The position numbers and the translations under genes are program-made. Shown here one piece after another: positions 22,783 to 47,053 of a stretch of DNA of 64,000 nt. How positions within the stretch are numbered: the stretch's first letter is position 1; every line of letters starts with the position of its first letter. This DNA comes from Pseudomonadota bacterium (GTDB lineage Bacteria > Pseudomonadota > Alphaproteobacteria > Rickettsiales > SXRF01), in assembly GCA_963205195.1 (NCBI GenBank), contig CAUJHR010000011.1:84164-148163 (forward strand), given 5' to 3'. Below the pieces are notes generated by a model. The model searched no databases, had not been told where the DNA came from, and saw only the letters and a list, made by a program, of their open reading frames with translations.

Positions 22783-25266
22783 TTAATAGTTTAATATGCT
22801 TACATTAGTTGAGGTATCCCAAGGGACTAATGTGCGGCCAAATAATATATGTATACTACCAGCATCACTGGAGGCATGTTCAGAAGATATAATTAAATCA
22901 TTTTTCCCATCATTGTTAATGTCGGCAATGGTTTCCACATTCACATTCTGACTTGCTGCATCGCCATCAATTCGGAATCCCTTGCTTGTATCGCTATTTA
23001 AGGGCAGGCCAGTACCAGTTGAATCAAATACCTGACCAAATAATGTAAGTGTGCCGCTTGACCATGCTGTACTCCAGCCACCGCTAGGCTGCAATACTAC
23101 AAAGCTTGCACCAGAATTTGACAAGCTGTTGGGCCCTCCGTTTGAATCAATGGATATAATGTCTTTTTTCCCATCGCCATTTACATCGGCTATAAGCGCA
23201 CTTGTCATAGGTGAAGTGACCCAAGCTGGAATATTGCTAACTAAATCCACTCTGAAGCCATTGGTGCCATTGTAATTTGCTGCTGTTGAAAGGTCAGGAG
23301 AGGTCCAACTGGCTGCTGTCTTTCCATAATAAATATAAAAATAATTACCATTATTAAATATAATATCATTATAACCATCGTTATTCATATCTGCTACCCT
23401 AATAGTGTATCTGCCAAGGTTGCTGGTACCATTAGTGAACTTAACAGCATCTGTTACACCAGCGCTAACACGAGTATCAATATTTACTATATCTGGAGTG
23501 GCCCCAGTTGCTGCAGTGGTTTTATCGGTATCCCAGTTTGCGGCAGACTCTCCAAAAAGAACATATGCAATATTATTGGTGTAATTGCTGACTATAATAT
23601 CTTCATACGTATCGCCATTAACATCACCAGACCCTACTGCTGATATTGCTTCCAGCCTTCCGGGAGAAGTAGTGTTGATTTTAAAACCAGTAGAGGCTGC
23701 TAATAACCAGTTTGTAGTATCGGCTGTTTTTGAGCCATAAGATGCTGCACCATATATAACATAAGCAGTTGAACTTCCTGTGCCAGAGGCAGTTTTTATA
23801 AGGGCAAGTATATCTTTGTTTGTTGTATGTGCAAATTTTCCAAGTGTTATTTGTGGCGCACCACTGGCAGTAGTTGATGGAAATGTTATGATGTCAGTGA
23901 GAGAGCTGGTATTGGTATCTACCGGTGAGGCACTTCCATAAAATATTTTTATATAGCTTCCGCTTCCATCCCCATAACCTATAATGATGTCATCATATCC
24001 ATCGCCATTAATATCGCCGGACGCCAAGCTGCCGGCAAAATTAGGAAGCGAAGAATTGTCAGTTATAGTAAAGAATCTTGAACTGTTGGCAGTTGCCATA
24101 GATATAGCAGAATTTGGAGTCCAGCCTGTAGGCTTACCATATATCACTCTAATTTTAGTACCGCCAGATTTTGAGGCTATTATATCTGATATACCATCTC
24201 CATTTATATCACCATTTGTAATAGACCAGCCCAGATTTTCTGCTGCAGAACCATCAATTCTTGTTCCTATATTGCACATTTTTCCTGTGCAGCATGTGTT
24301 CTTGGTTGATTCCTGCGTCCATACAGTATCATCAAAATAGTTATTTCCAGAAACCAGGTTTGGCTCATGTCTTATTAAATATGGAGTATACGATGTGGTA
24401 AAGTCAGTAGTATTTACGTCAATAAAGGCATTGGTGCGCTCATCTTTATTGGTTGCAGCGCTATCAATCCTATTTGCAAGGCTAGAACCCTGCATTGGAA
24501 AAGCGCCATGACCATTTTTCCCATATGATATTAAAGCCCACATTGCATTATCGCTATTGTATGAACCTATATTGGCCCATGAATCCATGATTTGAATTGC
24601 ACCCGAAGTTTTAGTGGTTTGCATATTGCGACAAGTTGTTTTATCGGTTGCCCTTATATCAACCATGTAACCTATGCGCCGCCCGTAACCATCCAGCATG
24701 TAATCATCAGAAAGACCAATTGTTTTTGTGGGAACTACTCCTGCTGCAACAGTAGTAAAAGTTAATGTTCCGCTGGCACCAGTTGCATATTTATCCATTG
24801 TAATTTGAGTGGCGCTATCAACACTAATTATATGAGTATTCGCCGCAATATTAGTTCCTGTAACAAGCATACCTATAGAAAGTCCGGTTGTGTCGCTTAA
24901 GGTAGTAGCTACCGCAGATGATGATGTAGTTGTAGCACCAGTTTTAGTTACAGGGGTTGATTGAGTATAAAAATTAGCTCCAGAACAGCTTCCTGAATTA
25001 GTATCTTCTTTGCCAAAATTTACATTGGTGCTTGCTAAAGTGCCATCTGCAGGACATGGGCGCCTTAAATTGGCTGCCATAAAGCTCTGGGTGGCTATTT
25101 CTATTTTTTCCATTTTTTCACGCGTAATGCGGTTTTTTTCAATATCACTGTTTGACTCACCGCCGGGGATGACTGAGGAAAGTATTATACCGGCAACTGC
25201 TATCAGTATACTTACCTGAACGAGCGAAAAACCTTGTTTTTGCATATTTATCTTAGATTTCGCCAT
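22783..25266 (-). CDS. Prepilin-type N-terminal domain protein fused to a seven-repeat FG-GAP (integrin-alpha-like) beta-propeller region
   Basis: The N-terminus MAKSKINMQKQG/FSLVQVSILIAVAGIIL has a type IV prepilin cleavage/methylation-like motif. Residues 1 to about 330 are paralogous to the 281-aa pilin-like ORF at 56557-57402. The C-terminal ~490 aa carry seven D-x-N-x-D-G-x-x-D-(I/L)-(I/L) repeats (GDINGDGISDIIAS, GDINGDGYDDIIIG, GDVNGDTYEDIIVS, ADMNNDGYNDIIFN, ADVNGDGKKDIISI, ADINNDGKNDLIIS, plus one degenerate copy). Confidence 0.8.
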   Translation of the reverse strand: MAKSKINMQKQGFSLVQVSILIAVAGIILSSVIPGGESNSDIEKNRITREKMEKIEIATQSFMAANLRRPCPADGTLASTNVNFGKEDTNSGSCSGANFYTQSTPVTKTGATTTSSSAVATTLSDTTGLSIGMLVTGTNIAANTHIISVDSATQITMDKYATGASGTLTFTTVAAGVVPTKTIGLSDDYMLDGYGRRIGYMVDIRATDKTTCRNMQTTKTSGAIQIMDSWANIGSYNSDNAMWALISYGKNGHGAFPMQGSSLANRIDSAATNKDERTNAFIDVNTTDFTTSYTPYLIRHEPNLVSGNNYFDDTVWTQESTKNTCCTGKMCNIGTRIDGSAAENLGWSITNGDINGDGISDIIASKSGGTKIRVIYGKPTGWTPNSAISMATANSSRFFTITDNSSLPNFAGSLASGDINGDGYDDIIIGYGDGSGSYIKIFYGSASPVDTNTSSLTDIITFPSTTASGAPQITLGKFAHTTNKDILALIKTASGTGSSTAYVIYGAASYGSKTADTTNWLLAASTGFKINTTSPGRLEAISAVGSGDVNGDTYEDIIVSNYTNNIAYVLFGESAANWDTDKTTAATGATPDIVNIDTRVSAGVTDAVKFTNGTSNLGRYTIRVADMNNDGYNDIIFNNGNYFYIYYGKTAASWTSPDLSTAANYNGTNGFRVDLVSNIPAWVTSPMTSALIADVNGDGKKDIISIDSNGGPNSLSNSGASFVVLQPSGGWSTAWSSGTLTLFGQVFDSTGTGLPLNSDTSKGFRIDGDAASQNVNVETIADINNDGKNDLIISSEHASSDAGSIHILFGRTLVPWDTSTNVSILNY

Positions 25267-28568: not shown

Positions 28569-29729
28569 TTAAAATAATTCTACTTCTTCTGCTTTAACTG
28601 AAGCAGGAGTATCTGTTGTATTTGTCGTACTAAGGGGTGTTCCTTCCAGGCTTAATTGGAATAATTTAGCGAATTCACTTAACTGGAATTGCTTTTCTAC
28701 ATTTTCTGCCAGAAATTTATCTGGCTTTATCTCTGATAATTCTGGAAAATAAGTGATATTATCTCTTTTTAATGTAGCAATATTTCCATCCATATAATCA
28801 AGCAGGCGCAAGCTGCTCTCTATGTATTGGGTTGTGCGGTCTTGAAATTGTAGATTTACAACCATTCCAGAAAGAGTATCCGAAGCCTCATGGCTAATGG
28901 ATGCAGAATTTTTTAATATAGCAGAAAATTTATTTTTCTGTTCTATCATCCCACCCATCAATGTAGCAAGCCTGCCTTGGGCTATTATGGTTTGCGACAT
29001 ATCGGTTGCCGAAACTTCTTTTAATATTTCATAACCATCACTAACGCCATCGCTTACAGTATTTATACGTACATTAATAGATTCTGCTATTTCACGTATT
29101 GTATTTGATACTTCTTTAACTTCATTTGCAACTACACTAAATCCGCGTCCTGCCTCACCAGCCCTTGCTGCTTCAATACTTGCATTCAGCGCTAGAAGGT
29201 TAGCCTTTTTTGTTATATTCTGTATGTCAGTTATAAAATTTGCTATGGTAGATATGCTTTTCATAGCCTCATCAAGCGCATAAACCATACTTATTGCACG
29301 CTTAGAAACAAACAATATCTTTTCTATAGAATCATTAAGCGTACCAGAGAACATCTCCATGAACTCTTCTAGAGTAACCTGCTCATTGCCAATAGTAATG
29401 GTATTTGATAACTCAGAGATTTGCTCGACTGATTTGCTTTGCTGCCTAATATCATTTGCAAGGCTTATGAAGCGGCTTGACATTGCTTTTGTTGAGTCTT
29501 CAACTAGCTTTGCTGTTTGGGGTAGCTGATGCTTTAATACACATAATGCATGATGATAAACCCCCATAGTGGAATGCCACCGCATAAGTTGTTCATGCGC
29601 TATTTGTTCAGTTTTTATTTGTGTGTTATTTGTCTGATTTAACATAAGAATGTTTTCTCTTATGAAGTCGAAAAAGTCAATAATAAATCTATTGTAGGTT
29701 GTATAAATTATTGTCCTAAAATAAGACAA
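28569..29729 (-). CDS. Soluble methyl-accepting-chemotaxis-protein signalling-domain protein
   Basis: Highly conserved MCP hairpin tip [37 protein letters not shown]. No TM segment is evident. The likely start is the internal Met near 29645 (MLNQTNN..). Confidence 0.85.
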
Positions 29730-29749
29730 TTAAAATATTAAATATATTT

Positions 29750-30508
29750 TTAAGGAATGGATTCTAAAACTTCACGCATATAAACAGGCTGCGGAAGTCT
29801 TGAATTTCTGCCAATAATCCTTGTTATAAAGGATAGCTGCTCCCTTGAAATTGTAATAGGAGCTTTCAATATTTTCCAATGCACATTCTCAGTGCATGGA
29901 GGATAAGGTAGGGAGCCATCATAGGAATAGTACGCTTGATTATTAGAAATAAGGCTATTTGTGTTTATTTTGAATTTATCAAGTTTCTTTTCGGCTATAG
30001 GTTTTATAATTTGTGATATAGTGGAATTTTCAGAGCCGATATTTATAAATTGAGCAACTATAAGTATATCCCCTTTTTTATTTTTATGAATAAGGTGGAC
30101 CTCTGCTGGATAAAAGCCATCTTTTATTCGATGGCTACTTGGTGAATGAATCTCTATGGAATATAAGTTATATGATTCCTCACCTACAATTAATTCACCG
30201 CCATTTACAGCATAAAAAATAAAAGATCTGTTTTTAACTAATTTAAAAACCCCTTCTGCTTCATTATACTTAAAATTGAGAGAAGGAAGTTCGGATGGCT
30301 TTGTATAGGTAATATTTATTGGTGATTGCTTGGTTCCGTTACCACATACAGAATAACCTTTTACTGCTCCCCAATCTTCTTGTCCTGTATAATCATCATC
30401 ATAACTCCAGATCCCTTCAGGCACTGTTATATTTCTTTGTGCAAAAGAATTGCTTGGAATCATTAAGAAAAATGACAGTATTATCGAATAAATTGATATA
30501 TAACGCAT
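29750..30508 (-). CDS. Alpha-class carbonic anhydrase, secreted
   Basis: Signal peptide MRYISIYSIILSFFLMIPSNSFA. Alpha-CA motifs: GTKQSPINI, His ligands in EIHSPSSH / EVHLIHKN, and YYSYDGSLPYPPCTENVHW. The track ORF runs to 30739 (TTG), but that extension overlaps the portal gene. The Met near 30508 is the plausible start (coordinate approximate). Confidence 0.85.
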   Translation of the reverse strand: MRYISIYSIILSFFLMIPSNSFAQRNITVPEGIWSYDDDYTGQEDWGAVKGYSVCGNGTKQSPINITYTKPSELPSLNFKYNEAEGVFKLVKNRSFIFYAVNGGELIVGEESYNLYSIEIHSPSSHRIKDGFYPAEVHLIHKNKKGDILIVAQFINIGSENSTISQIIKPIAEKKLDKFKINTNSLISNNQAYYSYDGSLPYPPCTENVHWKILKAPITISREQLSFITRIIGRNSRLPQPVYMREVLESIP

Positions 30509-30685
30509 AGATTTATTTTTATAATTGATGGTTGCATTATATATTATATTTATTTTTTTTATTAAAAGTATTTTTTTTACTTCCTGACCATAAAAAGCAA
30601 GCTTATTAATTAAATATACGCTGCATAATTTGCATCCAGCCTTTAGGCAATATCCCCTGTATTCTATTATTATAAAGGAAAGAAC

Positions 30686-31921
30686 ATGGCCCAAGCTAGA
30701 ACCTTGCTCAGTAAATTGTTTAGTAGAAAAAATGCACAAAGCCTTGGTTTCAGATCAGCTATTGCTGGATATACATCTCGTTCATATATGGTTATGCCAG
30801 GGCAGGCTGTATGGATGGATAGGGATTATACTCAATTTGCTAAGGAGGCCTATGTAAAAAATGTAATTGCCCACCGTGCTATTGATATGGTTTCTACTGC
30901 TGCATCTTCAGTAAAAATCGAATTATATTCCATAAATTCCAAAGGTGTCCGCCACGAAGAAAAATTTCATCCAGCGCTTGATATTTTAAAGCGCCCTAAT
31001 CCTATGCAAGCCACCAGCGATTTTTTTCAAGCATTGTATAACTATTACCAAATTAGTGGAAATGTATTTATCCAAGCTATAGGAGCAAAGGATACTCAGC
31101 CCAAAGAGCTGCATTTGTTGCGTCCCGACAGAATTTCTATAATAGCAGGAAAATCCGCATTACCAGAAGCTTATAGATACACTATAAGTAACCAGTCACG
31201 AGATTTTCCCGTAGACAAGATAAGCGGAAAATCAATGATTCTGCATATACGTAAATTCAATCCACTTAATGATTGGTATGGGCTTTCGTCGGTTGAGGCT
31301 GCCGCATATAGTATTGACCAACATAATCAGTCTGGTGCATGGAACCAATCATTATTGCAAAATGGCGCACGTCCCAGCGGAGCATTGGTTGTAGGTGGAG
31401 AAGTTACAGGGGGAGGGGTTTTATCAATTGAGCAATATAATAGAGTAAAACAGCAGATTGACGATCAGTTTTCTGGTCCTGAAAATGCTGGGAGGCCCTT
31501 ATTGCTTGAGGGGGGGCTTGATTGGAAAGAAATGAGCATGAGTCCAAAAGATATGGACTTTGTTGAAGCTAAACACTCATCGGCAAGGGATATAGCTTTG
31601 GCCTTCGGTGTTCCTCCACAATTGCTTGGCATCCCAGGAGATAATACTTATTCTAACCTTCAAGAAGCGCGTCTGGCATTATGGGAACAAACAGTTATAC
31701 CTTTAGTGGAGCGTACAATAGACAGGCTAAATAATTGGCTTATACCGTTTTTTGGAGATAGGTTGGAGCTTACAGCTGACACTGATAGTATAACAGCGCT
31801 TGCTGCAAGTAACCAGGCTATATGGGATAGGGTGGAAAAATCAAGCTTTCTTACGGATGATGAAAAACGTATTGCAGTTGGATATTCTCCGCTTTCTCAC
31901 AAAAAGAAAATTATTGATTAG
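30686..31921 (+). CDS. Phage portal protein, HK97 family (RcGTA g3-like)
   Basis: Typical HK97-portal motifs: ..NPLNDWYGLS..EAAA..I..HN....WN..LL.NGARPSGAL, then SPKDMDF...K....RDIALAFGVPP.LLG. Confidence 0.9.
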   Translation: MAQARTLLSKLFSRKNAQSLGFRSAIAGYTSRSYMVMPGQAVWMDRDYTQFAKEAYVKNVIAHRAIDMVSTAASSVKIELYSINSKGVRHEEKFHPALDILKRPNPMQATSDFFQALYNYYQISGNVFIQAIGAKDTQPKELHLLRPDRISIIAGKSALPEAYRYTISNQSRDFPVDKISGKSMILHIRKFNPLNDWYGLSSVEAAAYSIDQHNQSGAWNQSLLQNGARPSGALVVGGEVTGGGVLSIEQYNRVKQQIDDQFSGPENAGRPLLLEGGLDWKEMSMSPKDMDFVEAKHSSARDIALAFGVPPQLLGIPGDNTYSNLQEARLALWEQTVIPLVERTIDRLNNWLIPFFGDRLELTADTDSITALAASNQAIWDRVEKSSFLTDDEKRIAVGYSPLSHKKKIID

Positions 31922-31970: not shown

Positions 31971-32561
31971 ATGAGTTTACGAAATAATATACTATCATAT
32001 GGAAGTGTTGCTAAATTTTTTCATTGGGCAGTAGCATTTTTAATTATTGGGATGATTGCTGTTGGGCTAATAATGGCTAATATGGAAAATAGCCCCGATA
32101 GATTTAAACTAATTGCCCTTCATAAGGAATTTGGAGTAGTTGTACTTATCCTTGCCTGTATGCGCTTAGGATGGAAAATACTAGATGTAAGTCCATTATT
32201 TCCAGAAAGCATGGATAAAATTTCAAGGCTTGGAGCTAAATTGGTACATTCCATGCTTTATATTCTTATGTTTGCTATGCCTATTACCGGTTGGCTAATG
32301 TCATCGGCTGCTGGTTTCCAGGTATCATTCTTTGGTTTGTTTTTATTACCAAATATTGCTTCTGCTGATAAAGAATTTGGTCATAGTATGGCTGAGCTAC
32401 ACGAGATTCTTGCATGGATATTGATCGCATTAATTACCCTGCATGTTCTTGCTGCGTTATTGCATCATTTTTATTATAAGGATAATATATTGCTGCGTAT
32501 GCTTCCTAATTTTAAAGGTAAATCCAATGCAGAAAATACTGGCACTGATACTGGCATTTAG
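31971..32561 (+). CDS. Cytochrome b561 (CybB family)
   Basis: Four TM helices with conserved His ligands (AKFFHWAVAFL.., LHKEFG, ELHEILAWILIALITLHVLAALLHHF). Confidence 0.85.
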   Translation: MSLRNNILSYGSVAKFFHWAVAFLIIGMIAVGLIMANMENSPDRFKLIALHKEFGVVVLILACMRLGWKILDVSPLFPESMDKISRLGAKLVHSMLYILMFAMPITGWLMSSAAGFQVSFFGLFLLPNIASADKEFGHSMAELHEILAWILIALITLHVLAALLHHFYYKDNILLRMLPNFKGKSNAENTGTDTGI

Positions 32562-33096
32562 TGTAGCTCTTGCTTTTCCAGCATTTGCTGATGCCCCGGC
32601 TTATAAGATTATTAAGGAAAAAAGTTATCTTAAATTTTATGCCATTAATAATGGCTCGCCTGTTGAGGGGCAATTTAAAGATTTTTCTGCAAGCATTAAT
32701 TTTGATCCTGAAAAACTTGCAGATAGTAAAATCAATATTGAAGTGCAAACAGTAAGTGTTGCTACGGATTATGATGAAGTTGCTAAGAACTTAATTTCTA
32801 AGGATTGGCTTGCAACATCGGATTTTCCTAAGGCCGTATTTACAAGCAAGGCAATTACTAGAATGCCAAGTTCAGAAAATTACTATGCTGATGGAACGCT
32901 TAAATTGCGGGATAAAAATGTACCGGTGGTCATTAATTTTCAATTGCAGTTTCCTGGCAGCAAAACTGCCATTGCCAATGGTTATGTAACGTTACGCCGC
33001 AGTGACTTTGGAATCGGTCAAGGCCAATGGTCTAAGGATGATGTGGTGAAGAATGAAGTGCGGGTTGAATTTCGGGTAGTAGCTGAAAAGATTTAA
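32527..33096 (+). CDS. YceI-family periplasmic polyisoprenoid-binding protein
   Basis: Signal peptide MQKILALILAFSVALAFPAFA. YceI pattern: ..S.L.F.......V.G.F..F...I.FDP.....S.I.I.....S..T, then L+LRDK..PV.. The start is refined to the internal ATG at 32527 and overlaps the cybB end, the usual cybB-yceI pairing. Confidence 0.85.
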   Translation: MQKILALILAFSVALAFPAFADAPAYKIIKEKSYLKFYAINNGSPVEGQFKDFSASINFDPEKLADSKINIEVQTVSVATDYDEVAKNLISKDWLATSDFPKAVFTSKAITRMPSSENYYADGTLKLRDKNVPVVINFQLQFPGSKTAIANGYVTLRRSDFGIGQGQWSKDDVVKNEVRVEFRVVAEKI

Positions 33097-35303: not shown

Positions 35304-35717
35304 ATGAGAGATATGTATCATAATGTATTGGTTTCCCAGCATCTAAGTCCTATTGTGGCAACTAGTGCTAAAACCTCAACATCAATAGATTTACAAGGTT
35401 ATAATAGTATAAATGTGATTTTTAATATAGGACTTGCTGGCGATACCTTATCAGGAACCGTTTATTGGACTATAAAATTACAACATAGTGATGATGATAC
35501 CACCTATTCTGACCTATCTTTGTCAGATCTAAATAGCCCATATCTTACAATAGCTATCGATTCTTCTGCAAAGGACAGAAACTGCTATAGCTTTGGCTAT
35601 CAGGGCGCTAAACGTTACCTTAAGGCCCTAGCCACTCCTACCGGAACACATACTAATGGAACACCGATAGGTGTTGTTGCTATGCGTAGCGCAGCTGCAT
35701 ACATGCCTGTAATATAA
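35304..35717 (+). CDS. Hypothetical protein following the capsid gene (possible head-associated protein)
   Basis: 137 aa, starting 14 nt after the capsid gene. The pattern ..SIDLQGYNSINVIFNIG..GDTLSGTVYWTIKLQHSDDDTTYSDL.. resembles an unnamed family I recall seeing after capsid genes in HK97-like prophages. The assignment is not verifiable here. Confidence 0.45.
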   Translation: MRDMYHNVLVSQHLSPIVATSAKTSTSIDLQGYNSINVIFNIGLAGDTLSGTVYWTIKLQHSDDDTTYSDLSLSDLNSPYLTIAIDSSAKDRNCYSFGYQGAKRYLKALATPTGTHTNGTPIGVVAMRSAAAYMPVI

Positions 35718-35865: not shown

Positions 35866-36213
35866 GTGTCAAAACTTTCTAAGGCTGAGCAAATCATTGC
35901 TGAAAAGACCGTTTGCGTACTTTTAGTCCGCGGTGAAAGTCCTGATGGTGAAAAGATATTTGCATATATGGCAGTAAGGGCCGATAAGCTCGAATCATTT
36001 ATTGAAGCTCAGAAAAGTGGTACTTTTTACCCAGAAGATTATGGAATTGTTATAGAATCCGGATATGGTGACCCCTCAGATGAGGTAAAGGAAAAAATGA
36101 CCAAGGAATATGGCTTCAACCATGAGGCAATGCTTGATATTGAGAGTCCTCAGGGAGCCAATGATATAGCCAGCAATATATCTTCATATGTTTCTGGAAT
36201 TAAAGAAGAATAA
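35866..36213 (+). CDS. Hypothetical acidic protein (115 aa)
   Basis: ORF with a GTG start after a 148-bp AT-rich spacer. No motif. Confidence 0.4.
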   Translation: MSKLSKAEQIIAEKTVCVLLVRGESPDGEKIFAYMAVRADKLESFIEAQKSGTFYPEDYGIVIESGYGDPSDEVKEKMTKEYGFNHEAMLDIESPQGANDIASNISSYVSGIKEE

Positions 36214-36315: not shown

Positions 36316-37113
36316 GTGACTAGTAATGGTTTAATATCAAATAACAATCATGCTGTTAGATCGGTAAGGCGGAATATCGGTCTTGAATCAGCAGGTTTTG
36401 CTGCTGCTGAAGGTGCATCAATGGTGACCTCGTTAGGAGTAGTTGCCGTTATGGACAAGGTTGTCCCAAAGCCATTAATGGATAAAGCAACTGATATAGT
36501 TTCAAAAGTTTTTATTGAACCATACCTTGATACTATTGAGCGCAATCTTGCTAAGTGCAGGCTTGAAGAATGTCAGGTTGATGAAACAAAAACTCGTGAA
36601 GAGCGAGCAAGAAGGCTGGCTAACGGAGTAGTAATTTTTGGGACCGCATATTGCTTTGCGCTTGCCGCAAAATTTGGCGCAAGGAAGTATGCGAATAAAT
36701 TGACTGGTGTCACTGAAGCAGAAGCATCTACAGAAGCTGGTTTATTATCTAAAGTAAAATCCCATATACCGTTTGTTGGATATACGCGTGATGCTAATAT
36801 GATTACTATTGCCGACGAAGCTGTGCACATAGGATCTTTAATATATTTAAATACGAAAGCATCACAATTTACTGATGATCATATTAAATCTCTTAGCAAG
36901 ACACTTGAAAAATTTGGTGTAAGTAAGGAAAAGGCTAAAGAGGTTTCAACCATGGTGATGGTTTGGGAAGTGCCGAACTTTTTGGGGATGATGGCTGGCG
37001 GAACAGCAATTGCTGGTAAACATGCTAAGGGATGGGGCATGGATAAAAAACACCCTAAATATAGCATTATGGATGTGGTTAATGGAACTGCAAAAGCTCC
37101 ATCAATTTCGTAA
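36316..37113 (+). CDS. Hypothetical membrane-associated protein (265 aa)
   Basis: GTG start. Gly/Ala-rich hydrophobic stretches (SAGFAAAEGASMVTSLGVVAV, GVVIFGTAYCFALAAKFGA, FLGMMAGGTAIAG), similar in style to the orphan proteins at 40310-44770. Confidence 0.45.
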   Translation: MTSNGLISNNNHAVRSVRRNIGLESAGFAAAEGASMVTSLGVVAVMDKVVPKPLMDKATDIVSKVFIEPYLDTIERNLAKCRLEECQVDETKTREERARRLANGVVIFGTAYCFALAAKFGARKYANKLTGVTEAEASTEAGLLSKVKSHIPFVGYTRDANMITIADEAVHIGSLIYLNTKASQFTDDHIKSLSKTLEKFGVSKEKAKEVSTMVMVWEVPNFLGMMAGGTAIAGKHAKGWGMDKKHPKYSIMDVVNGTAKAPSIS

Positions 37114-38205: not shown

Positions 38206-38601
38206 ATGTTTAATTATTATAATTTACAAAAAGCAATTTATGACAAGCTTAGAAGTGATGCTGTTTTAATGACGCAAATCACTGGTGTGTATGACAATGT
38301 GCCTCAAGAAACTTCTTACCCTTTTATTTCATTTGGTAAAAATTACTCGAAAAAATTTGATATTTTAGGAAAAAATGGGTTTGAGCAAAAATTAGATATT
38401 GAAATATGGAGCCGGGAAGGTGGAAAAAAACAATCCGCATCTATTATAGAATCGGTATATTCTTTGCTACATAATGTAAATATCTCAATTGTTGGAATTA
38501 CAGTAATCAGCATAGAAGTAATATCATATTCTATAAGTTTGCAAAATGATGGATATACATATCATGGAGTTATAAATTTAAGGGCTATATTATCTAATTA
38601 G
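38206..38601 (+). CDS. DUF3168-type tail-completion protein (RcGTA g8-like)
   Basis: L.KAIYDKLRSD..L...ITGVYDNVPQETSYPFISFG......D.....G.E..LDIEIWSREGG.. Confidence 0.75.
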   Translation: MFNYYNLQKAIYDKLRSDAVLMTQITGVYDNVPQETSYPFISFGKNYSKKFDILGKNGFEQKLDIEIWSREGGKKQSASIIESVYSLLHNVNISIVGITVISIEVISYSISLQNDGYTYHGVINLRAILSN

Positions 38602-39343
38602 AGTTGGCAGGAATTGCAGCAGGTGCAGAAAGTGCATTAATATAAGTCCTGAATTGAGTTTCAGTATTTGTTAAATCGGATTTTTCACAGTCATTATTTG
38701 AATATAGCTCTTCATATGACCCTTTGGCTGCCGTTAAAGTATCATATTGCAAGCGTATTGGAGCCTGAAGAGCTGCTATTTCCCTTTGCATTGATGTAAT
38801 TATAAGGCTGTAATCATTATCGGTTGCTTTCCCACATTTTTGCATCAGGAAATATGTCACTAACAAATCTTCATAACGGGTCTTAATATCATCTATTGTG
38901 GTTACTTTATTATCAGGGGTTTTCCTAATATCGAATATATCTGATATATTATTCTTACCAGCTGAATCAGCCGTATTTATATTTGACTGATTATCTGGTA
39001 TTAAAGGAGGATAATAGTTTTTTTGAAGCTCAGAATTCTCTTCATCATTAACAGCAATATCCTCTGAATTAGAATCGGATTTGTTTTCAATGCTATCTAT
39101 ACGGTTTCCTAGCTCCCTAACTCTATAATCATAAAGGGCAATTAAAATAAAAGAAAAACCCATTATAGAAACAAGTTGGATGCTCCGTGACCAATGGAAG
39201 CGTATAATTTGCTTAATTGACTCAGAATCATATTTCTTATGAAGGCTGTTTTTAATCTGATTGTTTTCAATTATATGCAGGGCTAAGATTATAACAAATG
39301 CAACGGTAAGAAAAAACCAAAGTATAAATGGATATTCTTCCAT
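38594..39343 (-). CDS. Hypothetical membrane protein (two N-terminal TM helices)
   Basis: TM segments FILWFFLTVAFVIILALHII and LVSIMGFSFILIALY, an acidic/Asn-rich linker and a C-terminal globular part with two Cys. It starts 5 nt downstream of the lectin-like gene on the same strand. Confidence 0.5.
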   Translation of the reverse strand: MEEYPFILWFFLTVAFVIILALHIIENNQIKNSLHKKYDSESIKQIIRFHWSRSIQLVSIMGFSFILIALYDYRVRELGNRIDSIENKSDSNSEDIAVNDEENSELQKNYYPPLIPDNQSNINTADSAGKNNISDIFDIRKTPDNKVTTIDDIKTRYEDLLVTYFLMQKCGKATDNDYSLIITSMQREIAALQAPIRLQYDTLTAAKGSYEELYSNNDCEKSDLTNTETQFRTYINALSAPAAIPANSN

Positions 39344-39348
39344 GGGAT

Positions 39349-39804
39349 TTATGGATTTCCTAGCTCTCGATCACAGTCAATTGATAGAAAGCCTTCTATT
39401 GCCTTAGCTTTTCTTAGTTTATCTACAGAAAAACAACGATATTCTATTTGTAGATTTTTATAGCCGCAGCCAGGAGCTGGGTCGCCTCCCAAAGCGTCAC
39501 TGCTAATAGGAATATCGCATTTTGGTTTTCCATTGCAATATATTGAAACTTTATAGAGCACATTATCTTCTTTTACTACACTTCTTGATTCTTCCGATTG
39601 TGAATTAGAATTGTACTTATCATTATATGGAGAATTGCAATTAAGCCCCCAGCTGGCACGCTCCACTGTAATATTGTAAGGAGAGCTTTCTTTTAAGATT
39701 GTAGTTGCTACAGGTTCAGACTTATTCATCATAAATATATGGATTATGCCATATATCATGACGATAATTATAGATACTATAAGTAAATGGGCTTTAAAGT
39801 GCAT
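39349..39804 (-). CDS. Membrane-anchored SUEL/rhamnose-binding-lectin-like domain protein
   Basis: N-terminal TM anchor (LLIVSIIIVMIYGIIHIFM). Then ITVERASWGLNC....(30)...VLYKVSIYCNGKPKCDIPISSDALGGDPAPGCGYKNLQIEYRC matches the Gal_Lectin/SUEL pattern (A.YGR..C ... C.GK.SC.V......FG.DPC.GT.KYL.V.Y.C). Confidence 0.55.
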   Translation of the reverse strand: MHFKAHLLIVSIIIVMIYGIIHIFMMNKSEPVATTILKESSPYNITVERASWGLNCNSPYNDKYNSNSQSEESRSVVKEDNVLYKVSIYCNGKPKCDIPISSDALGGDPAPGCGYKNLQIEYRCFSVDKLRKAKAIEGFLSIDCDRELGNP

Positions 39805-39880
39805 GTCGATATTATTTATTTAAATGGTTATTATTCCGTTAATTAAATTTAAAAAAATACTAAGTTTATAAGGATAACAA

Positions 39881-40138
39881 ATGAATACGGAAATTACAAA
39901 GTATAAAAATTCATCTGCTAATGATTTGCTTGAAAACAGGATTTTGCAGCTTGAAAAACAATTAGCAAAACTTACCATGATTAATGATCGTAAATTAAAT
40001 AATAGCGACGCCCAATACAACCATTCAGGAGTTTCAAATATTCCAAACTCGTATAATAACAATTTGTCATTGAGTGAGGGGCAGCTATCTGCACATATGG
40101 CATTAGCCATGTCGCGCTCGAGCCAACGTAATTCGTGA
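39881..40138 (+). CDS. Small hypothetical coiled-coil/Asn-rich protein (85 aa)
   Basis: ORF only, with a short heptad-like LENRILQLEKQLAKL. Confidence 0.3.
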   Translation: MNTEITKYKNSSANDLLENRILQLEKQLAKLTMINDRKLNNSDAQYNHSGVSNIPNSYNNNLSLSEGQLSAHMALAMSRSSQRNS

Positions 40139-40309: not shown

Positions 40310-42115
40310 ATGGCTAAATATTCAGATGATAATTACAGCTCCTACTCTTCCACGGAAGATGCAAGGCGGAGCTTTGAAGAAAGCCAAAATCAATCTTTGA
40401 AAACCCTTGCTGATTTTTCTACTGTCCATGAAAAAGATGGGAAATATACTTATCTTGGCATGAATGTTCCGCCGGAGCTAGCTGGAACCTTGCAGTACGT
40501 GACCAGTACTTTCCCTACATATATTACAGATCTTCTTGGTGAAGGTGTATATAAAAACTCGAAACATGTTTATGAGAAATTAAATGATCGTTTCAAAGTT
40601 TCCTCCGACCCTTTGGCTTCTCATAAGGCAGGTTTAAAAGCTACTGCTGCAATGAGCGCAGTTCTTATAGGAGTTCAGCCTATTGTAGAGGTAGCTAGTT
40701 CAATAAGGCAGCATAGCCGCGATCGTAAGCATATTAAGGAGGTTCTATCCTCAGTCATTGAAATGAATAAAGGCAGTTACAAGAGCAATGAAGTTATAAT
40801 GACAGCTATGGAGAATGCCCATAATACAATGGTTACAGGCTTCATGCATGCTGCAGCTGAAATGCCGACAGTCTTGTTAAATGGATATTATGCAAGTGAA
40901 AGTCATAAAGAACTTGCTAAAGAAAAGACTAATGCTCTGCTTGGTGATATGCCGCCGGAATCAGATTCCTATAAAGAGTATTTAAGGCAGCAGGTAAAAA
41001 AACAGGAAGAGATAGACAAAACACATAATGCCTTAAAGGGTGAGTATGGTGATTCCGAAGCCTTTAGAAAGGTTATGGAAGAAGATTACGAAAGAAGGAA
41101 AAGTAATTTATCTTCTGAACTCGATTCTGGTAAATCTAAAGATACGGATGAGAAAAATAAATTTCTTTTCGTTAATATGGCTGGTGGCGCTAATATATTC
41201 CTGAAACATATGGTTTCCAAAGGACGCGATTCCCAGCAGCCAAGTGCTTATGAATTGATAGTTGATCTGCAGCAAAAAATTAATAATGGTGATATTTCTC
41301 ATGGTTCTGACATAACCGGGCAGATAATTGAAATATTCCAGCAAAATGAGCGTGACCGCAAGCGCCCACCTTTGGGTGATGTTTTTATGGAAAAATTTAC
41401 CCCTTTGGCCGAAAGGATTGGAGAGGTAATTTCAAATAGGGAACTGGACGCAATTGCATTGGTTAATATGGTCGGTGAAGGCAAAATAATCAACAAACGA
41501 CATTTTATAAAAACTGAACATTTAGAAGAGTTAATAGATGGTCAGAGAAAAGTATTCAGCAATCATGAAAAAACCCCTCTAGATGAATTTCTTTCTGATT
41601 TTCAGAACCCAAAAATGGTTATGCAGATTATTAAGGCGAATTTAAAAACACTTGATGGAGATTCAAAGGCGCTTTTTGCCTCCATATTTTCTGATGAAGT
41701 GCTCAAGGATGCTGGGGTATCTAAAAAAGATCTATTGCCACTTAGGGCTCACGGCCACGAGTTTATGTGCGATTTTATAAAGGGATCAACTTTAGAGTTG
41801 GCTAAAAAAACAGATGAAGAATTAAAAAAGTATGGGCTTTCTGATAAGCAAATTAATGCTGTTAAAAATTTAAATGAGCTTATATTAGCTGGTGACGATA
41901 AAAGCGTTAAATCTGCTATAGGAAGCGGTGGTGACATTGTAGCAGCTGTTCGCACGGCTGGTTTAAATGAGCAGGTAGCTACTGGTAATAATATGCTCTG
42001 GAGTAAGAAAGTGATAACTAAAAAGACACCAGCTGTGGCAGAAAAACCTAATGCTTCCACCGCAACTGAGCGCGTGACTGCAAGTCGCGAAAATCCAGCA
42101 ACTTTAAGTGTATAA
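40310..42115 (+). CDS. Large orphan protein (601 aa)
   Basis: Long uninterrupted ORF, predicted mostly helical. Moderately hydrophobic Ala/Gly segments (AGLKATAAMSAVLIGVQPIVEVA; GFMHAAAEMPTVLLNGYY) and a charged Lys/Glu central region. No catalytic or NTP-binding motif seen. Confidence 0.6.
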   Translation: MAKYSDDNYSSYSSTEDARRSFEESQNQSLKTLADFSTVHEKDGKYTYLGMNVPPELAGTLQYVTSTFPTYITDLLGEGVYKNSKHVYEKLNDRFKVSSDPLASHKAGLKATAAMSAVLIGVQPIVEVASSIRQHSRDRKHIKEVLSSVIEMNKGSYKSNEVIMTAMENAHNTMVTGFMHAAAEMPTVLLNGYYASESHKELAKEKTNALLGDMPPESDSYKEYLRQQVKKQEEIDKTHNALKGEYGDSEAFRKVMEEDYERRKSNLSSELDSGKSKDTDEKNKFLFVNMAGGANIFLKHMVSKGRDSQQPSAYELIVDLQQKINNGDISHGSDITGQIIEIFQQNERDRKRPPLGDVFMEKFTPLAERIGEVISNRELDAIALVNMVGEGKIINKRHFIKTEHLEELIDGQRKVFSNHEKTPLDEFLSDFQNPKMVMQIIKANLKTLDGDSKALFASIFSDEVLKDAGVSKKDLLPLRAHGHEFMCDFIKGSTLELAKKTDEELKKYGLSDKQINAVKNLNELILAGDDKSVKSAIGSGGDIVAAVRTAGLNEQVATGNNMLWSKKVITKKTPAVAEKPNASTATERVTASRENPATLSV

Positions 42116-42271: not shown

Positions 42272-43771
42272 ATGGATAAAAAACTGCCACATAATCCTCA
42301 TAGAAAGCATAATTCTCCAGGGTCTGATGATCTGCCTGAAGCAGGAATCTTAGGCAAAGCTGCTTCCGGAGCTTTTAATACAATTATGATATTACCATTT
42401 GCAGCTCCGGTAGTTGGATTTGTAGGAAAGGCGTTTGGTTGGACCGGTGAAAAAACCGGCATAAATGCTATTGCAAAAGCCGGAAGAAGTACTCAGCATG
42501 CAATTGAATCATTGTCCCAAAAAACAATAGTCGAATTATCTTCTGGTCGGGGTTACACAAAAAGCATTGGTGATGCTATACAAAAAGGGGCTGATGCAGC
42601 CGGAAATTTTACCGATAAACTTTCTGATAGCTTGCATTTGGAAAGAATTGGAAAAGCAAGTGAATATAATGCTAAAAAACATCTGGTAAAGATCAGTGCA
42701 TTATTGGCAGAACATAAGGAATTGCCGCGTGAGTTAAAACCACACCTCAAAAATATTAATAATATTGTAAAAAATAGATCTGCAAATTTTGATCCAAAAA
42801 AATTGGAATCGGCAGTAGCTGGCTTATCACAAGCCATAAAGGGCTTAAAAAAGGATTTGCCTTATAAAGTATCAAAAACCCTTGGTACAATATCTAAGCT
42901 CTCTGATAAAGCTACTAACAGTAAAATCAACGCCACTATTTTATCTGATCTTGGCGGTGCTGTAAGAGGTATGCCAAAAGCCTTGGGCAATGCCTCGGCA
43001 ATGAATACTATTATGAATACCGGATTTGTAGCCAGTTCTGCAATGGGTGTATATGGGGCTGCTAAAGGGTTTAAGGAAAATCTGGCTTCTCTTAAAGAAA
43101 TGGCGGCTGATATTGATGGCAAGCCTGTTTCAACATTTTCATTGCTATTTGGTAAGGCTTCAGGACCTGTAAAAGAGGCTCGTTCCAAACTATTGAAAAG
43201 TTTTGCGGCTTCCGAAATATCAGAAGGTATTGGGCTTGGTGTAAGTGTTGCCAATATACTTAAAGGCAGAATGTCAATGCTTGGATTTATGGCTCCGCAA
43301 CTTGCAGGTATTGGTGCAAGTACCTTAATAGGGGAATCTGTTTTGCCATATTATGCTTCATTAAAACAGGCTCATTCATCTGGCCGTGATATACCGGTAG
43401 AGGCTTATGCTGAGTTTATAACAAAGGTTAGCCCTGAATTACAGGCACGTGGGCATACGGGTAAAGTGTTTTCTAAAAAACTTGCTGAACAGTTTGCTGC
43501 CGAAAAAACTAGTCCCGCAGAAATTATGCGTGAATCTATGGATGGGAATCTTATAAAACGTGTGAATGGTATTATTGCTTCTAATGAGATCGCTAAACCA
43601 AAAAAAGCTATCGAAATTACATCTATTAATGAGCCGTCAAATACACATGTAGCAGGATTGCAGAAGTCTGCAAATAAAGTTATACCGCATAAAAACCAGC
43701 CTGTTTTAGGTGACCATACAGCAAAAGTGGTTTCTGATGCTGCTCAAGCACAACGTGCCTTATTAACTTAA
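42272..43771 (+). CDS. Large orphan protein (499 aa) with Gly-rich hydrophobic segments
   Basis: A TATAAT box lies at about 42227-42232. Hydrophobic Gly/Ala segments: GILGKAASGAFNTIMILPFAAPVVGFVGKAFGW; NTGFVASSAMGVYGAAKGF; GIGLGVSVANIL...LGFMAPQLAGIGASTLIG. Confidence 0.6.
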   Translation: MDKKLPHNPHRKHNSPGSDDLPEAGILGKAASGAFNTIMILPFAAPVVGFVGKAFGWTGEKTGINAIAKAGRSTQHAIESLSQKTIVELSSGRGYTKSIGDAIQKGADAAGNFTDKLSDSLHLERIGKASEYNAKKHLVKISALLAEHKELPRELKPHLKNINNIVKNRSANFDPKKLESAVAGLSQAIKGLKKDLPYKVSKTLGTISKLSDKATNSKINATILSDLGGAVRGMPKALGNASAMNTIMNTGFVASSAMGVYGAAKGFKENLASLKEMAADIDGKPVSTFSLLFGKASGPVKEARSKLLKSFAASEISEGIGLGVSVANILKGRMSMLGFMAPQLAGIGASTLIGESVLPYYASLKQAHSSGRDIPVEAYAEFITKVSPELQARGHTGKVFSKKLAEQFAAEKTSPAEIMRESMDGNLIKRVNGIIASNEIAKPKKAIEITSINEPSNTHVAGLQKSANKVIPHKNQPVLGDHTAKVVSDAAQAQRALLT

Positions 43772-43783
43772 TGACGTAAACAT

Positions 43784-44770
43784 ATGTCTACTCCAGACCT
43801 AGAAGAAGCCAGTGTTTTTAAAAAAGTTACTACTACTGGCTTTCGGGATATTACAAATAAGGATTATGTAACTACAGCTAGCGCCGCCCTTGATGGAGTT
43901 GGCATGGTTGAAAAATTTGCACCAAAAGTTGGTAAAATAATCCCATATTCATCTTCAATAGGTGCAGTTCTTAGCGGAGCTGAGGCATATTATAATGAAG
44001 ATATAACAAGGGCGCGTATATCTAAGTACTTTAATGGAGCAAGCATAAAACAGTTAGTACGTCATAATCCTGCTTTAAGAAACAGGCTTGAAAATGGCGG
44101 CGTAGACTGGGGAAATATGGCCGGCAGTATGGCATCTTCGGCGGCAGGTGCTGCTGTAGGAGCGGCAGGTGCGGGTGCATTAATATCAGCTATACCACTT
44201 TTACTGCCAATTATGCCTATCGCATTCCCTATTGCTATGCTGGTTGGATCTGGTTTTGGAGGGTATGTAGCTAATAAATTATACAGCGATACCTTCGTTA
44301 AACAGCAGCAAGATCCCATTATTATAAATATGCAAATAGCAAAAATGAACTCTGTCGGGGAAGCTATACCTTCTGAAGTTGTATTTGCGGCACTTGCTGC
44401 CAATTTGAAGGGCAGAGCAGGGGAATATGCCGAAGCCCGCCTTGCAAAATATACAGGCACAAAATTATTTATGGAAGCACTTAGTGACCCTTCTAACATG
44501 TCCAAATTAACAGCAATGATGAATAATACCAGGATTGATGACGCAATACGTGCACAGACTGGAATGCCGCGTGACGCTCAGAACCCATTTAAAACTGTTG
44601 CTGAACAATATGCAGATATGATTAATAGTGGGCAAATGAAACCGCAGAATTTACTAAATCCTGGTGAAGGGCTTTATATTAAGTCACAGACGATGATGGG
44701 CAATGCTTATAATATAGATGTGCCTGTTACACCAGAAACGCGTCAGAGGGAATCTAGCGTTACTATATAA
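43784..44770 (+). CDS. Orphan protein (328 aa) with a ~50-aa bilobed hydrophobic domain
   Basis: MAGSMASSAAGAAVGAAGAGALISAIPLLLPIMPIAFPIAMLVGSGFGGYVANKLY is a glycine-zipper/bilobed hydrophobic hairpin. The gene starts 12 nt after the previous gene and lies immediately upstream of the distal-tail (g12-like) gene. Confidence 0.6.
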   Translation: MSTPDLEEASVFKKVTTTGFRDITNKDYVTTASAALDGVGMVEKFAPKVGKIIPYSSSIGAVLSGAEAYYNEDITRARISKYFNGASIKQLVRHNPALRNRLENGGVDWGNMAGSMASSAAGAAVGAAGAGALISAIPLLLPIMPIAFPIAMLVGSGFGGYVANKLYSDTFVKQQQDPIIINMQIAKMNSVGEAIPSEVVFAALAANLKGRAGEYAEARLAKYTGTKLFMEALSDPSNMSKLTAMMNNTRIDDAIRAQTGMPRDAQNPFKTVAEQYADMINSGQMKPQNLLNPGEGLYIKSQTMMGNAYNIDVPVTPETRQRESSVTI

Positions 44771-46386: not shown

Positions 46387-46584
46387 ATGAATATGCAGGT
46401 AATAAGGAATTTTTTTACTGGCATATTTTCTGTATTGAAAATTACCAGTTCACCATTACTGTACAGATATCCTTACCGCAATTCGGCTGAAGGTTTACGC
46501 AAAGACTGGCTATGCATAGGACGAGATATAAAAACAATAATCGGCAAATTAGAAGAAAATAGCGATGGAAATAGAAGAAAATAG
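46387..46584 (+). CDS. Small hypothetical ORF (65 aa)
   Basis: ORF only. It overlaps the start of the DUF2335-like gene. Confidence 0.25.
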   Translation: MNMQVIRNFFTGIFSVLKITSSPLLYRYPYRNSAEGLRKDWLCIGRDIKTIIGKLEENSDGNRRK

Positions 46585-47053
46585 GAACGGTGAACAGAAA
46601 ACTACTAAGGCAGGCGGGCATTATAACCGCGGCAACCGGGACCGCATGCAGAATCGTACTGTAGAGATGCTGCCGCACCCTGAAGTCCTTGAAAGCTATA
46701 ACTATGTGGTAGATGGCTCTGCTAAAATGATCCTGACAATGTTCGAAATGGAGCAAAAGCACCGTCATGAATGGGAAACGCAAGCTCTTCGTATTCATAG
46801 CACTTCTTCTTTAGTTGGGCAGATATTAGGTTTTTTTATAGCTGTAGCTGTGTTCGTTTCTGCTACAATTATAGGAATGTATGGCAACTCAACTATAGCA
46901 GCTAGTATATGGGTTTTTGGCATGGCTATTATAGTTATGGCTGGGCTTGTGTGGGCTTATGCTAAAAGTATGGGGCAGCGCCCGCTTTTTGCCCGCCCTA
47001 CAATGCGTGCACATTTCCGTCCGCAAAAAGATAATTCGGACCAGCAAGAATAA
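46565..47053 (+). CDS. DUF2335-like membrane protein
   Basis: LPHPEVLESYNYVVDGSAKMILTMFEMEQKHRHEWE followed by two TM helices. This matches my recollection of the DUF2335 signature (PPPE.L..Y....PG.AERI..M.E.EQ.HRH..E). Confidence 0.55.
   Translation: MEIEENRNGEQKTTKAGGHYNRGNRDRMQNRTVEMLPHPEVLESYNYVVDGSAKMILTMFEMEQKHRHEWETQALRIHSTSSLVGQILGFFIAVAVFVSATIIGMYGNSTIAASIWVFGMAIIVMAGLVWAYAKSMGQRPLFARPTMRAHFRPQKDNSDQQE

Follow-up and report, generated by a model that had tools for sequence, protein, structure and literature searches.

We find that two adjacent minus-strand genes, one encoding a membrane-anchored protein with a domain related to the SUEL-type rhamnose-binding lectins (RBLs) and the other a larger membrane protein, are an ancient, vertically inherited antisense module of the RcGTA-type gene transfer agent (GTA) cluster in an uncultured, Rickettsiales-like clade of Alphaproteobacteria. 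The genes, called here the lectin gene and the partner gene, were studied in a 64,000-nucleotide stretch of contig CAUJHR010000011.1 (positions 84,164 to 148,163 of the forward strand, assembly GCA_963205195.1), which we refer to as the window and in whose coordinates all positions are given. The pair does not appear to be a cell-surface adhesin. As to its function, the reading that we tentatively favor, with a probability of roughly 0.35, is that of a moron-like periplasmic module that would act on the tails of incoming GTA particles or phages.

The Gene Pair and Its Setting

The features on which the argument turns are the following, with the evidence for each in parentheses; dN/dS is the ratio of nonsynonymous to synonymous substitution rates.

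39349–39804 including the stop codon, minus strand: lectin gene, encoding a 151-residue bitopic membrane protein with a SUEL/RBL-like domain (open reading frame [ORF], PF02140 match, family size, dN/dS)
39730–39786, minus strand: N-terminal transmembrane (TM) anchor of the lectin protein, residues 7–25 (hydropathy and charge across 28 members; helix 2–26 of the AlphaFold2 [AF2] model)
39433–39678, minus strand: SUEL/RBL-like domain, residues 43–124 (Pfam match, PDB profile alignments, conservation in 144 sequences)
39352–39432, minus strand: family-specific C-terminal extension, residues 125–151, with invariant F125, D128, and C144 (alignment; AF2 strands 127–135 and 139–143)
38594–39343 including the stop codon, minus strand: partner gene, encoding a 249-residue protein (ORF, 265 representatives at 50% identity, dN/dS about 0.05)
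39128–39325, minus strand: TM hairpin of the partner, residues 7–72, made of TM1 (7–25), a basic loop of about 28 residues, and TM2 (54–72) (Lys/Arg counts; AF2 helices 5–37 and 40–103)
38627–38908, minus strand: C-terminal four-helix bundle of the partner, residues 146–239, with invariant K154, C170, Y214, and C219, predicted to be periplasmic (AF2, alignment)
38206–38601, plus strand: g8, tail terminator or completion gene, the last of the head-neck block and convergent with the pair (PF11367, E = 1.1e-18; phrog_176)
38594–38601, strand not applicable: convergent overlap of the partner and g8 stop regions, 8 nt, with no room for a terminator (sequence)
39805–39880, strand not applicable: AT-rich divergent spacer of 76 bp between the lectin gene and p85, the presumed promoter site for the pair and for the distal GTA genes (sequence)
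39881–40138, plus strand: p85, first gene of the distal block, divergent from the lectin gene and at the place expected for g11, the tape-measure gene (ORF, synteny, relatives of 85–132 residues)

Both ORFs are genuine genes and not chance readings, given their large families and dN/dS values of 0.05–0.10. A preliminary description made from the sequence had placed two minus-strand genes 5 nt apart directly against a g8-like gene, with stop regions overlapping at 38594–38601, and the coordinates and stop codons agree with it: the spacing is 39344–39348 in the ORF listing, the g8 stop codon TAG reads at 38599–38601, and the partner stop codon occupies 38594–38596 on the minus strand. The peptide that it quoted, ASWGLNC...VLYKVSIYCNGKPKCDIPISSDALGGDPAPGCGYKNLQIEYRC, is found in the translation of the 151-residue protein. 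Its word "insertion" is apt relative to the RcGTA gene order and misleading as a statement about a recent event, the pair appearing to be ancestral to the whole clade.

The RcGTA-type cluster spans 30.7–51.2 kb on the plus strand and includes homologs of the portal, S78 protease, HK97-type capsid, adaptor (g6), head closure (g7), and tail terminator (g8) genes and, distally, of the DUF2460 (g12), Gp84/BR0599 hub (g13), NlpC/P60 (g14), and GTA_TIM/Phage-tail_3/Rcc01698_C megatron (g15) genes. The pair stands between g8 and a plus-strand run of genes without known family, namely p85, p601, p499, and p328. The window itself is a piece of low-GC (about 40%) bacterial chromosome with housekeeping genes for RNase E, PBP1a, an AmiC-type amidase, RF-2, ETF-QO, and an AcrAB-type efflux pump; with AcrB/HlyD and PBP1a encoded there, we take the host to be a diderm.

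Distribution and Age of the Pair

The identical lectin protein occurs in identical context on 13 contigs, and relatives at 40–76% lectin identity occupy the same slot. A scan of one genome per GTDB species identified 31 species, all of them uncultured metagenome-assembled genomes (MAGs) labelled Rickettsiales, Alphaproteobacteria, or Pseudomonadota (two are labelled Azospirill-), and a metagenome scan with a partner profile, built from a 12-sequence alignment since a 27-sequence one was too diverse, added 22 loci. Matches among the viral contigs of IMG/VR are fragments of the same GTA cluster and not independent phages. Together the genome, metagenome, and viral collections hold about 60 loci, all in uncultured Rickettsiales-like MAGs.

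As read by tblastn and hidden Markov model (HMM) searches, the loci run from the capsid gene through g6-g7-g8, and in some loci g9-g10-g10.1, to the partner and lectin genes on the opposite strand; after the pair come p85-p601-(p377)-p499-p328 and then g12-g13-DUF2335-g14-g15. In three independent scans the slot and orientation are constant in every locus that has flanks, down to a lectin identity of 28% and a capsid identity of 60%, and neither family was seen outside this locus type in the genome, metagenome, and viral scans. Loci that keep g10/g10.1 (L007, L019, L026, L046, L056, L057, L059, L060, and others) have the pair or the partner directly after them; in the window, where the chaperones are lost, the pair abuts g8.

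The partner occurs without the lectin in seven loci, and the lectin without a detectable partner in two. In a midpoint-rooted neighbor-joining tree of the capsid, the lectin-less loci are nested in lectin-bearing clades and the deepest branches carry the lectin. Based on this single-gene neighbor-joining tree we tentatively regard the pair as ancestral, with secondary losses; an interim idea suggested by the seven lectin-less loci, that the partner is older and the lectin was added later, was dropped in view of their nesting. The deepest capsid branches, on which the pair is present, lack the cytochrome b561 and YceI genes that elsewhere interrupt the cluster, and the pair is thus older than the insertion of those two genes. 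Its GC content at third codon positions (GC3; 0.263 and 0.260 for the two genes, against 0.20–0.40 in the neighbors) is that of native genes. Members of the lectin family that have a source name are all called hypothetical protein, and the named partner matches likewise. The preliminary description had called the lectin possibly eukaryote-like, a label that does not suit a family that is deep (to 28% identity), native in GC3, and recovered only from one clade of alphaproteobacterial MAGs; any eukaryotic origin of the lectin would have to be ancient.

The Lectin Protein

The protein matches PF02140 (SUEL_Lectin) with 35.3 bits against a gathering threshold of 31.4 (E = 1.6e-8), over residues 43–124 and model positions 7–80 of 80. 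Its family comprises at least 117 clusters at 90% identity, all of 114–179 residues, and 101 of these 117 carry a precomputed PF02140 match. PADLOC, NCBIfam, and PHROGs returned nothing for the lectin. A 28-member family profile compared with the PDB sequences met SUL-I first (2e-12, all three domains) and then CSL2, LAT-1, CSL3, and latrophilins 1–3; beyond SUL-I, eleven SUEL-type chains lie at E < 0.02, and no non-SUEL chain falls below E = 0.2. We regard the SUEL/RBL homology of the lectin, which the preliminary description had proposed together with a PF02140 search as its check, as well supported at the level of sequence: the Pfam score exceeds the threshold, and the family profile meets only SUEL-type PDB chains.

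By definition, RBL domains have eight Cys paired C1–C3, C2–C8, C4–C7, and C5–C6, and the motifs -(AN)YGR(TD)- and -DPCxGT(Y)KY(L)- (PMC3269628). The corresponding landmarks here are A50-x-W52-G53 (equivalent to YGR), C56, C90, C96, D108-P109, C113, K116-x-L118 (equivalent to KYL), and Y122-R123-C124, and their conservation was scored in 144 unique sequences. The YGR motif is degenerate (A50-S-W52-G53-L-N55): Ala is present in 100%, the aromatic site is W in 123, Y in 14, and L in 7, Gly is found in 142, and the Arg is lost. The DPC/KYL motif is kept (D108 in 114 sequences, P109 in 118, C113 in 143, K116 in 136, L118 in 132, and Y122-R123-C124 in 143), with an insertion of 2–3 residues between DP and C113. 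Six Cys (C56, C90, C96, C113, C124, and C144) are invariant, occurring together in 140 sequences, the other 4 being truncated; by alignment they are the equivalents of C3, C5, C6, C7, and C8 plus the family-specific C144. The SUEL-type Cys pattern claimed earlier stands, then, for C3 and C5–C8 and does not extend to the eight-Cys framework, as the equivalents of C1, C2, and C4 are missing from the alignment of the 144 sequences, which leaves C5–C6 as the sole canonical disulfide still possible. Paired loss of Cys was sought as a clue to the pairing of the others and was uninformative, all six being invariant.

The residues that contact sugar in CSL3 and LPHN1 are unevenly preserved. The Lys (CSL3 Lys86, LPHN1 Lys120) is near-invariant as K116, and the Tyr (CSL3 Tyr27, LPHN1 Tyr63) is W or Y in 137 of the 144 sequences. 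G114, equivalent to the Gly (CSL3 Gly83, LPHN1 Gly117), is variable; this is a main-chain contact. The Glu (CSL3 Glu7, LPHN1 Glu42) falls in the N-terminal first strand, which is missing from the lectin family. We infer that this strand may be replaced by the C-terminal extension, which contains a strand, "LSIDC", similar to the canonical N-terminal "L.C" strand.

An AF2 model of the lectin (pLDDT 82) contains helix 2–26, strand 44–52, helix 83–90, strand 95–99, strand 118–125, and two extra C-terminal strands, a predicted order compatible with the alpha/beta pattern of RBLs. The comparison with SUEL/CSL3 structures that the preliminary description had envisaged did not confirm the fold: when the PDB was searched by Foldseek with the full-length model, a query that included the TM helix and a low-confidence loop (64–73), the 50 top matches contained no SUEL structure and none lay at E ≤ 0.001; the best had E = 0.39, and those at the top were retron proteins (E about 0.4). 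We would not read this miss as refuting the homology, the sequence evidence being specific. The lectin is best described as a divergent, six-Cys, membrane-tethered bacterial variant of PF02140 with putative sugar binding.

The Partner Protein

An exhaustive HMMER search places the partner in a family of 265 representatives at 50% clustering, 150–465 residues long, in which the conserved domain is always C-terminal. The homologs begin with a TM hairpin, which carries conserved juxtamembrane motifs, and end with a domain of about 100 residues; between the two lies a Pro/Ala/Gln-rich linker that varies from about 30 to 300 residues, as is typical of periplasm-spanning proteins. In an AF2 model built from 70 sequences (pLDDT 83.5), the hairpin extends into a long stalk helix (40–103), followed by a disordered linker and a four-helix bundle (helices 146–169, 175–191, 197–213, and 223–239) with pLDDT above 90. 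The preliminary description of the second gene as encoding a two-TM protein with a Cys-containing C-terminal domain is borne out by the segments at 7–25 and 54–72 and the two C-terminal Cys.

The partner has no relative in Pfam, NCBIfam, PADLOC, PHROG, or the PDB sequences, and Foldseek returned nothing at E ≤ 0.001 from the PDB and BFVD. A Pfam match to PIG-P was rejected, its 27.4 bits lying below the cut-off of 39.3 and covering the TM hairpin only, and a resemblance of the bundle to type II secretion system (T2SS) pilotins, the Foldseek matches closest to it in shape, at a nonsignificant E of 2–8, was set aside as evidence and kept only as a weak lead.

Membrane Topology

The lectin family has a single hydrophobic core of 19–20 residues, to which all six Cys are C-terminal, and before it a cytoplasmic N terminus of the type MSFKxH that includes K4; M1, K4, L7, and I13 are at least 90% conserved. 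Across the family we found no conserved signal-peptidase motif and no secretion, autotransporter, or lipoprotein signal. This arrangement predicts an N-in/C-out signal anchor that would hold the domain about 17 residues from the inner membrane. In the partner, the N terminus carries 0–1 Lys/Arg and the inter-TM loop of about 28 residues 5–10 (70 homologs), which by the positive-inside rule makes the loop cytoplasmic and both termini periplasmic. The invariant Cys sets, six in the lectin and two in the partner, fit an oxidizing periplasm. Both products are predicted to be inner-membrane proteins with their Cys-containing domains in the periplasm.

The N-terminal TM anchor named in the preliminary description is the one hydrophobic segment at residues 7–25, and the Cys-rich domain is predicted to be extracytoplasmic, as that description needed it to be. 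It had also called the domain surface-exposed, which we do not uphold: in a diderm, a domain about 17 residues from its inner-membrane anchor would lie at the periplasmic face and not at the cell surface.

Selection, Coupling, and Transcription

By the Nei–Gojobori method against two relatives, dN/dS is 0.06–0.10 for the lectin, about 0.05 for the partner, and 0.07–0.18 for the adjacent neck genes, ratios that are approximate, as dS is 1–3 and near saturation. The pair is under strong purifying selection, as strong as or stronger than that on the neck genes. The two proteins also vary together: in a mirror-tree test on 14 loci, with distances near saturation, the lectin and partner distance matrices correlate at r = 0.82, against 0.49–0.75 for either with g6, g7, or p115, and the partial r is 0.73 after g6/g7 are regressed out, a value reached by 0 of 2000 permutations, with controls at about 0.4. 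This supports, and does not prove, that the lectin and the partner work together.

In 44 of 53 loci the partner stop lies at most 9 nt from the stop of the facing GTA gene or overlaps it by up to 40 nt, whether the facing gene is g8, g9, g10, or g10.1; the other 9 loci probably hold an undetected ORF in the gap. As there is no space for a terminator, transcription of the head-neck genes and of the pair must run into each other, and the abutment fits mutually exclusive transcription. The opposite strand guarantees the pair a separate transcript, but a scan for consensus promoters and terminators stayed at chance level. When the spacers between the lectin gene and p85 were aligned, no motif was conserved beyond close relatives, the conserved block being the coding start of p85.

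A Possible Role at Particle Entry

In phage HK97 the tail chaperone and tape-measure genes are separated by gene 15, whose inner-membrane product keeps incoming tails from delivering their DNA (PMC3594210), and RcGTA ejects its tape measure, a peptidase, and DNA into the periplasm of the recipient (PMC7296036). Periplasmic ejection by RcGTA and the slot of HK97 gp15 together make a particle-related role of the pair plausible. Under the moron-like reading, the lectin and the partner would form one inner-membrane complex that faces the periplasm and, having its own promoter and being transcribed against the GTA operon, would be synthesized chiefly in non-producing cells. The lectin domain would hold a rhamnose/galactose-type glycan of the envelope near the inner membrane, the partner would reach across the periplasm, and the module would block or channel what incoming GTA or phage tails eject there, by analogy with HK97 gp15. 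A stronger version, which we consider unlikely, would make the pair a GTA-encoded periplasmic gate on the recipient side, a lectin plus a stalk that is present only in non-producing cells by virtue of convergent transcription, reads an envelope glycan, and admits or rejects the ejected material.

A number of points weigh against the moron-like reading. The role of gatekeeper is drawn from position, orientation, topology, and analogy, and not from homology, as searches of Pfam, PHROGs, PADLOC, NCBIfam, and the PDB sequences, and Foldseek searches of the PDB and BFVD, turned up no resemblance to gp15/YebO, Sie, Imm, Ltp, or a PADLOC model. Conservation of position can be passive, as illustrated by the unrelated cytochrome b561/YceI pair, which much of the clade carries trapped in the cluster. 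Lineages without tail tube and chaperone genes, that of the window included, still keep the lectin and the partner, which is awkward if the role of these two concerns only tailed GTAs. With the lectin lost in at least two lineages and the partner undetectable in two loci, neither strictly needs the other, and the small, near-saturated mirror-tree sample has to be read with the knowledge that adjacent genes can share local rate effects. Independent expression is suggested by orientation only, a scan for consensus promoters and terminators having found nothing above chance. Finally, sugar binding is putative: the strand with the Glu7 equivalent is missing, the disulfide framework is lost, and the SUEL fold was not recovered by Foldseek.

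Some of these same observations would also suit a cellular envelope module unrelated to the GTA, such as a glycan sensor or a tether for polysaccharide, lipopolysaccharide, or peptidoglycan biogenesis, that was inserted long ago and became locked in a selected operon. Other conserved non-GTA genes do sit in the cluster (cytochrome b561 and YceI between portal and protease, DUF2335 between g13 and g14), and the pair lies on the opposite strand, resembles no phage family in PHROGs or BFVD, is native in composition, and is kept where the tail tube genes are gone. Cytochrome b561 and YceI are ubiquitous families, however, whereas in the genome, metagenome, and viral collections the lectin and the partner were found in a single slot of a single locus type, in about 60 loci, and the pair predates the insertion of the former two genes. 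Housekeeping genes would moreover be expected, at least sometimes, at other positions or in relatives without a GTA. We regard this explanation as the main rival, only slightly less probable than the moron-like reading.

Quite unlikely, in our view, is a role on the side of the producing cell, in which the pair would prepare the envelope for particle assembly or release (as a holin-like protein, in lysis timing, or as a scaffold) and would share its regulation with the distal tail genes by way of the spacer before p85. Divergence of two genes from one region, here the 76 bp between the lectin gene and p85, is often a sign of co-regulation, the partner is a TM-hairpin protein of small size, and release of RcGTA needs dedicated membrane and lysis proteins (holin and endolysin). 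Yet holins do not resemble a protein of 150–465 residues that has both termini outside and, besides a long linker in the periplasm, a globular domain; the pair is not accompanied by any muralytic enzyme, the lectin lacks a lipobox and is neither coiled-coil nor spanin-like, and convergent overlap with the head-neck operon would oppose co-expression with the particle genes. Holin and spanin readings were rejected on these grounds of size, topology, lipobox, and endolysin.

Highly improbable, finally, is the reading, based on the preliminary description, that the lectin is a surface-exposed, possibly eukaryote-derived adhesin for host glycans, allied to the attachment role of the tail. In its favor, SUEL domains are familiar mainly from animal lectins and latrophilins, the top PDB sequence matches are all eukaryotic, the domain is extracytoplasmic, and the carriers bear the label Rickettsiales, an order with many eukaryote-associated members. 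Against it, an uncleaved-type signal anchor and a tether of about 17 residues keep the domain at the inner membrane of a diderm, the lectin is nearly always paired with an inner-membrane, periplasm-spanning partner, its family is ancient, clade-restricted, compositionally native, and without the canonical RBL Cys framework, and its gene is antisense to the tail genes and so does not encode a particle component. For host-glycan recognition as such we found no supporting evidence, every occurrence lying inside a GTA cluster and nearly all being paired with the partner.

Other Genes of the Cluster

No match to the tail tube gene g9 or to the chaperone genes g10/g10.1 was found anywhere in the window by family HMMs at E ≤ 10, and the capsid tree suggests that g9 was lost independently in at least five lineages; the baseplate genes g12–g15 are still 60–88% identical. 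The particle may be evolving to a tube-less form. The place of g11 is filled, all on the plus strand, by p85 (39881–40138), p601 (40310–42115; with hydrophobic helices), p499 (42272–43771), and p328 (43784–44770), joined in some relatives by a fifth gene of about 370 residues. None of p85, p601, p499, and p328 has a match in Pfam, PHROG, NCBIfam, or PADLOC. Of the run, p328 and p499 were compared with the PDB sequences, the RcGTA particle entries included, and neither has a relative there. No recognizable tape measure was found in the clade; p85, with its conserved C-terminal helix of the type "GMSQGQIWAQAASAISRAMKRNL", is a candidate for a shortened one.

Between the capsid gene and g6 lie three conserved genes without known family, p137 (35304–35717, plus strand), p115 (35866–36213, plus strand), and p265 (36316–37113, plus strand; with hydrophobic helices); to our knowledge p137 and p265 are outside the canonical RcGTA gene order. 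The 115-residue p115 is the most conserved protein of the cluster, above the capsid, with 64–99% identity across loci and dN/dS of 0.01–0.04, and a diverged second copy lies on the opposite strand near the protease gene in several relatives (L007, L022, L028, L029, L034, L041, and L050). A second opposite-strand gene (143–144 residues, no Pfam match) stands between g7 and g8 in many loci, for example L007:12818–13252 and L009:11698–12129, and an HMM search at E ≤ 10 found no homolog of it in the window.

Cytochrome b561 (31971–32561) and YceI (32443–33096, an overlapping ORF call) are encoded between portal and protease on the GTA strand (plus), which shows that cellular genes can stay trapped in the cluster over the long term. 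In all loci g13 and g14 flank the DUF2335 gene (46565–47053, plus strand), whose product is a predicted membrane protein with 60–96% identity; this gene is another clade-wide addition. Upstream of the portal, at 28569–30739 on the minus strand, are genes for a eukaryotic-type carbonic anhydrase (PF00194) and a methyl-accepting chemotaxis protein. No terminase gene adjoins the portal, so the packaging genes must be elsewhere in the genome. Outside the cluster, an 827-residue FG-GAP repeat protein (22783–25266, minus strand) adjoins the PBP1a and amidase genes and has a weak C-terminal match to the periplasmic lysozyme inhibitor PliI, at 26 bits just below the cut-off of 27.

Comparison with Known Systems

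GTAs are domesticated phages, and their regulation and the uptake of their DNA by recipients are understood in only a few cultured models. Here a two-gene membrane module is fixed at one antisense position of a GTA across an uncultured clade and persists even without the tail tube. If it acts on incoming particles, domesticated GTAs would have kept or evolved moron-type control of entry, which bears on who benefits from the exchange, and a true gate would be the first GTA-encoded device for immunity or recipient capability and a case of a remodelled SUEL fold put to use in the bacterial periplasm. If, on the other hand, the pair is a trapped envelope module, the result is an ordinary one, still useful for annotating GTA clusters in Rickettsiales-like MAGs. 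Either way, the partner represents a sizeable protein family (265 clusters at 50% identity) that has no annotation.

We know of no antisense genes at the position of the pair in the canonical RcGTA cluster. Neither protein matches the phage structural families of Pfam and PHROGs, and both genes are antisense to the cluster. The surrounding genes are clear homologs of the RcGTA core set (g1–g15; PMC7296036), from which the clade differs in its extra genes p137, p115, p265, p85, p601, p499, and p328 and in having no recognizable tape measure. Loss of tail components with retention of head genes is shared with the reduced GTAs of Rickettsiales and Holosporaceae (PMC9254644), and that 2022 survey of endosymbiont GTAs mentions neither a lectin nor interspersed genes. 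A literature search for GTAs and lectins returned only papers on RcGTA receptor binding, and one for bacterial periplasmic SUEL domains nothing usable.

With HK97 gp15 the pair shares its slot, after the tail chaperones and before the tape-measure position of an HK97-like head-tail module, its presumed standing as an independent unit within a late, structural operon, and a predicted inner-membrane, periplasm-facing product. The differences are considerable: there is no similarity of sequence or fold, there are two genes instead of one, the proteins are much larger and have globular periplasmic domains, and the pair is on the opposite strand and of native rather than deviant GC. The pair moreover belongs to a domesticated, vertically inherited GTA whereas gene 15 belongs to a mobile prophage, and an exclusion activity of the pair is suggested by the analogy only.

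In architecture, the partner resembles TonB and TolA in its N-terminal anchor, variable and often Pro-rich spacer, and small C-terminal globular domain, and differs in that its anchor is a TM hairpin rather than a single TM segment; no TonB_C or TolA domain was found in it (Pfam, E ≤ 1), and no ExbBD or TolQR neighbors in any locus. Like the T2SS pilotins GspS, PulS, and OutS, it is predicted to have a small periplasmic four-helix bundle (TM-score about 0.57–0.60 on the target over about 93 residues), but such bundles are generic, and pilotins are lipoproteins of the outer membrane, not inner-membrane-anchored proteins like the partner.

The closest relationship is that of the lectin to the RBLs, with which it shares a domain of about 80–100 residues and the motifs A-x-[W/Y]-G and D-P-x-x-x-C-x-x-K-x-L-x-x-x-Y-x-C. 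It has six Cys and not eight, and a 27-residue C-terminal extension that supplies C144 and two predicted strands. Unlike the secreted, multivalent lectins of animals, it would be present as a single copy of the domain on a bacterial inner membrane, and it appears to be a membrane-tethered, periplasmic variant, with six Cys, of a domain that is familiar chiefly from the egg lectins of animals and from adhesion G-protein-coupled receptors.

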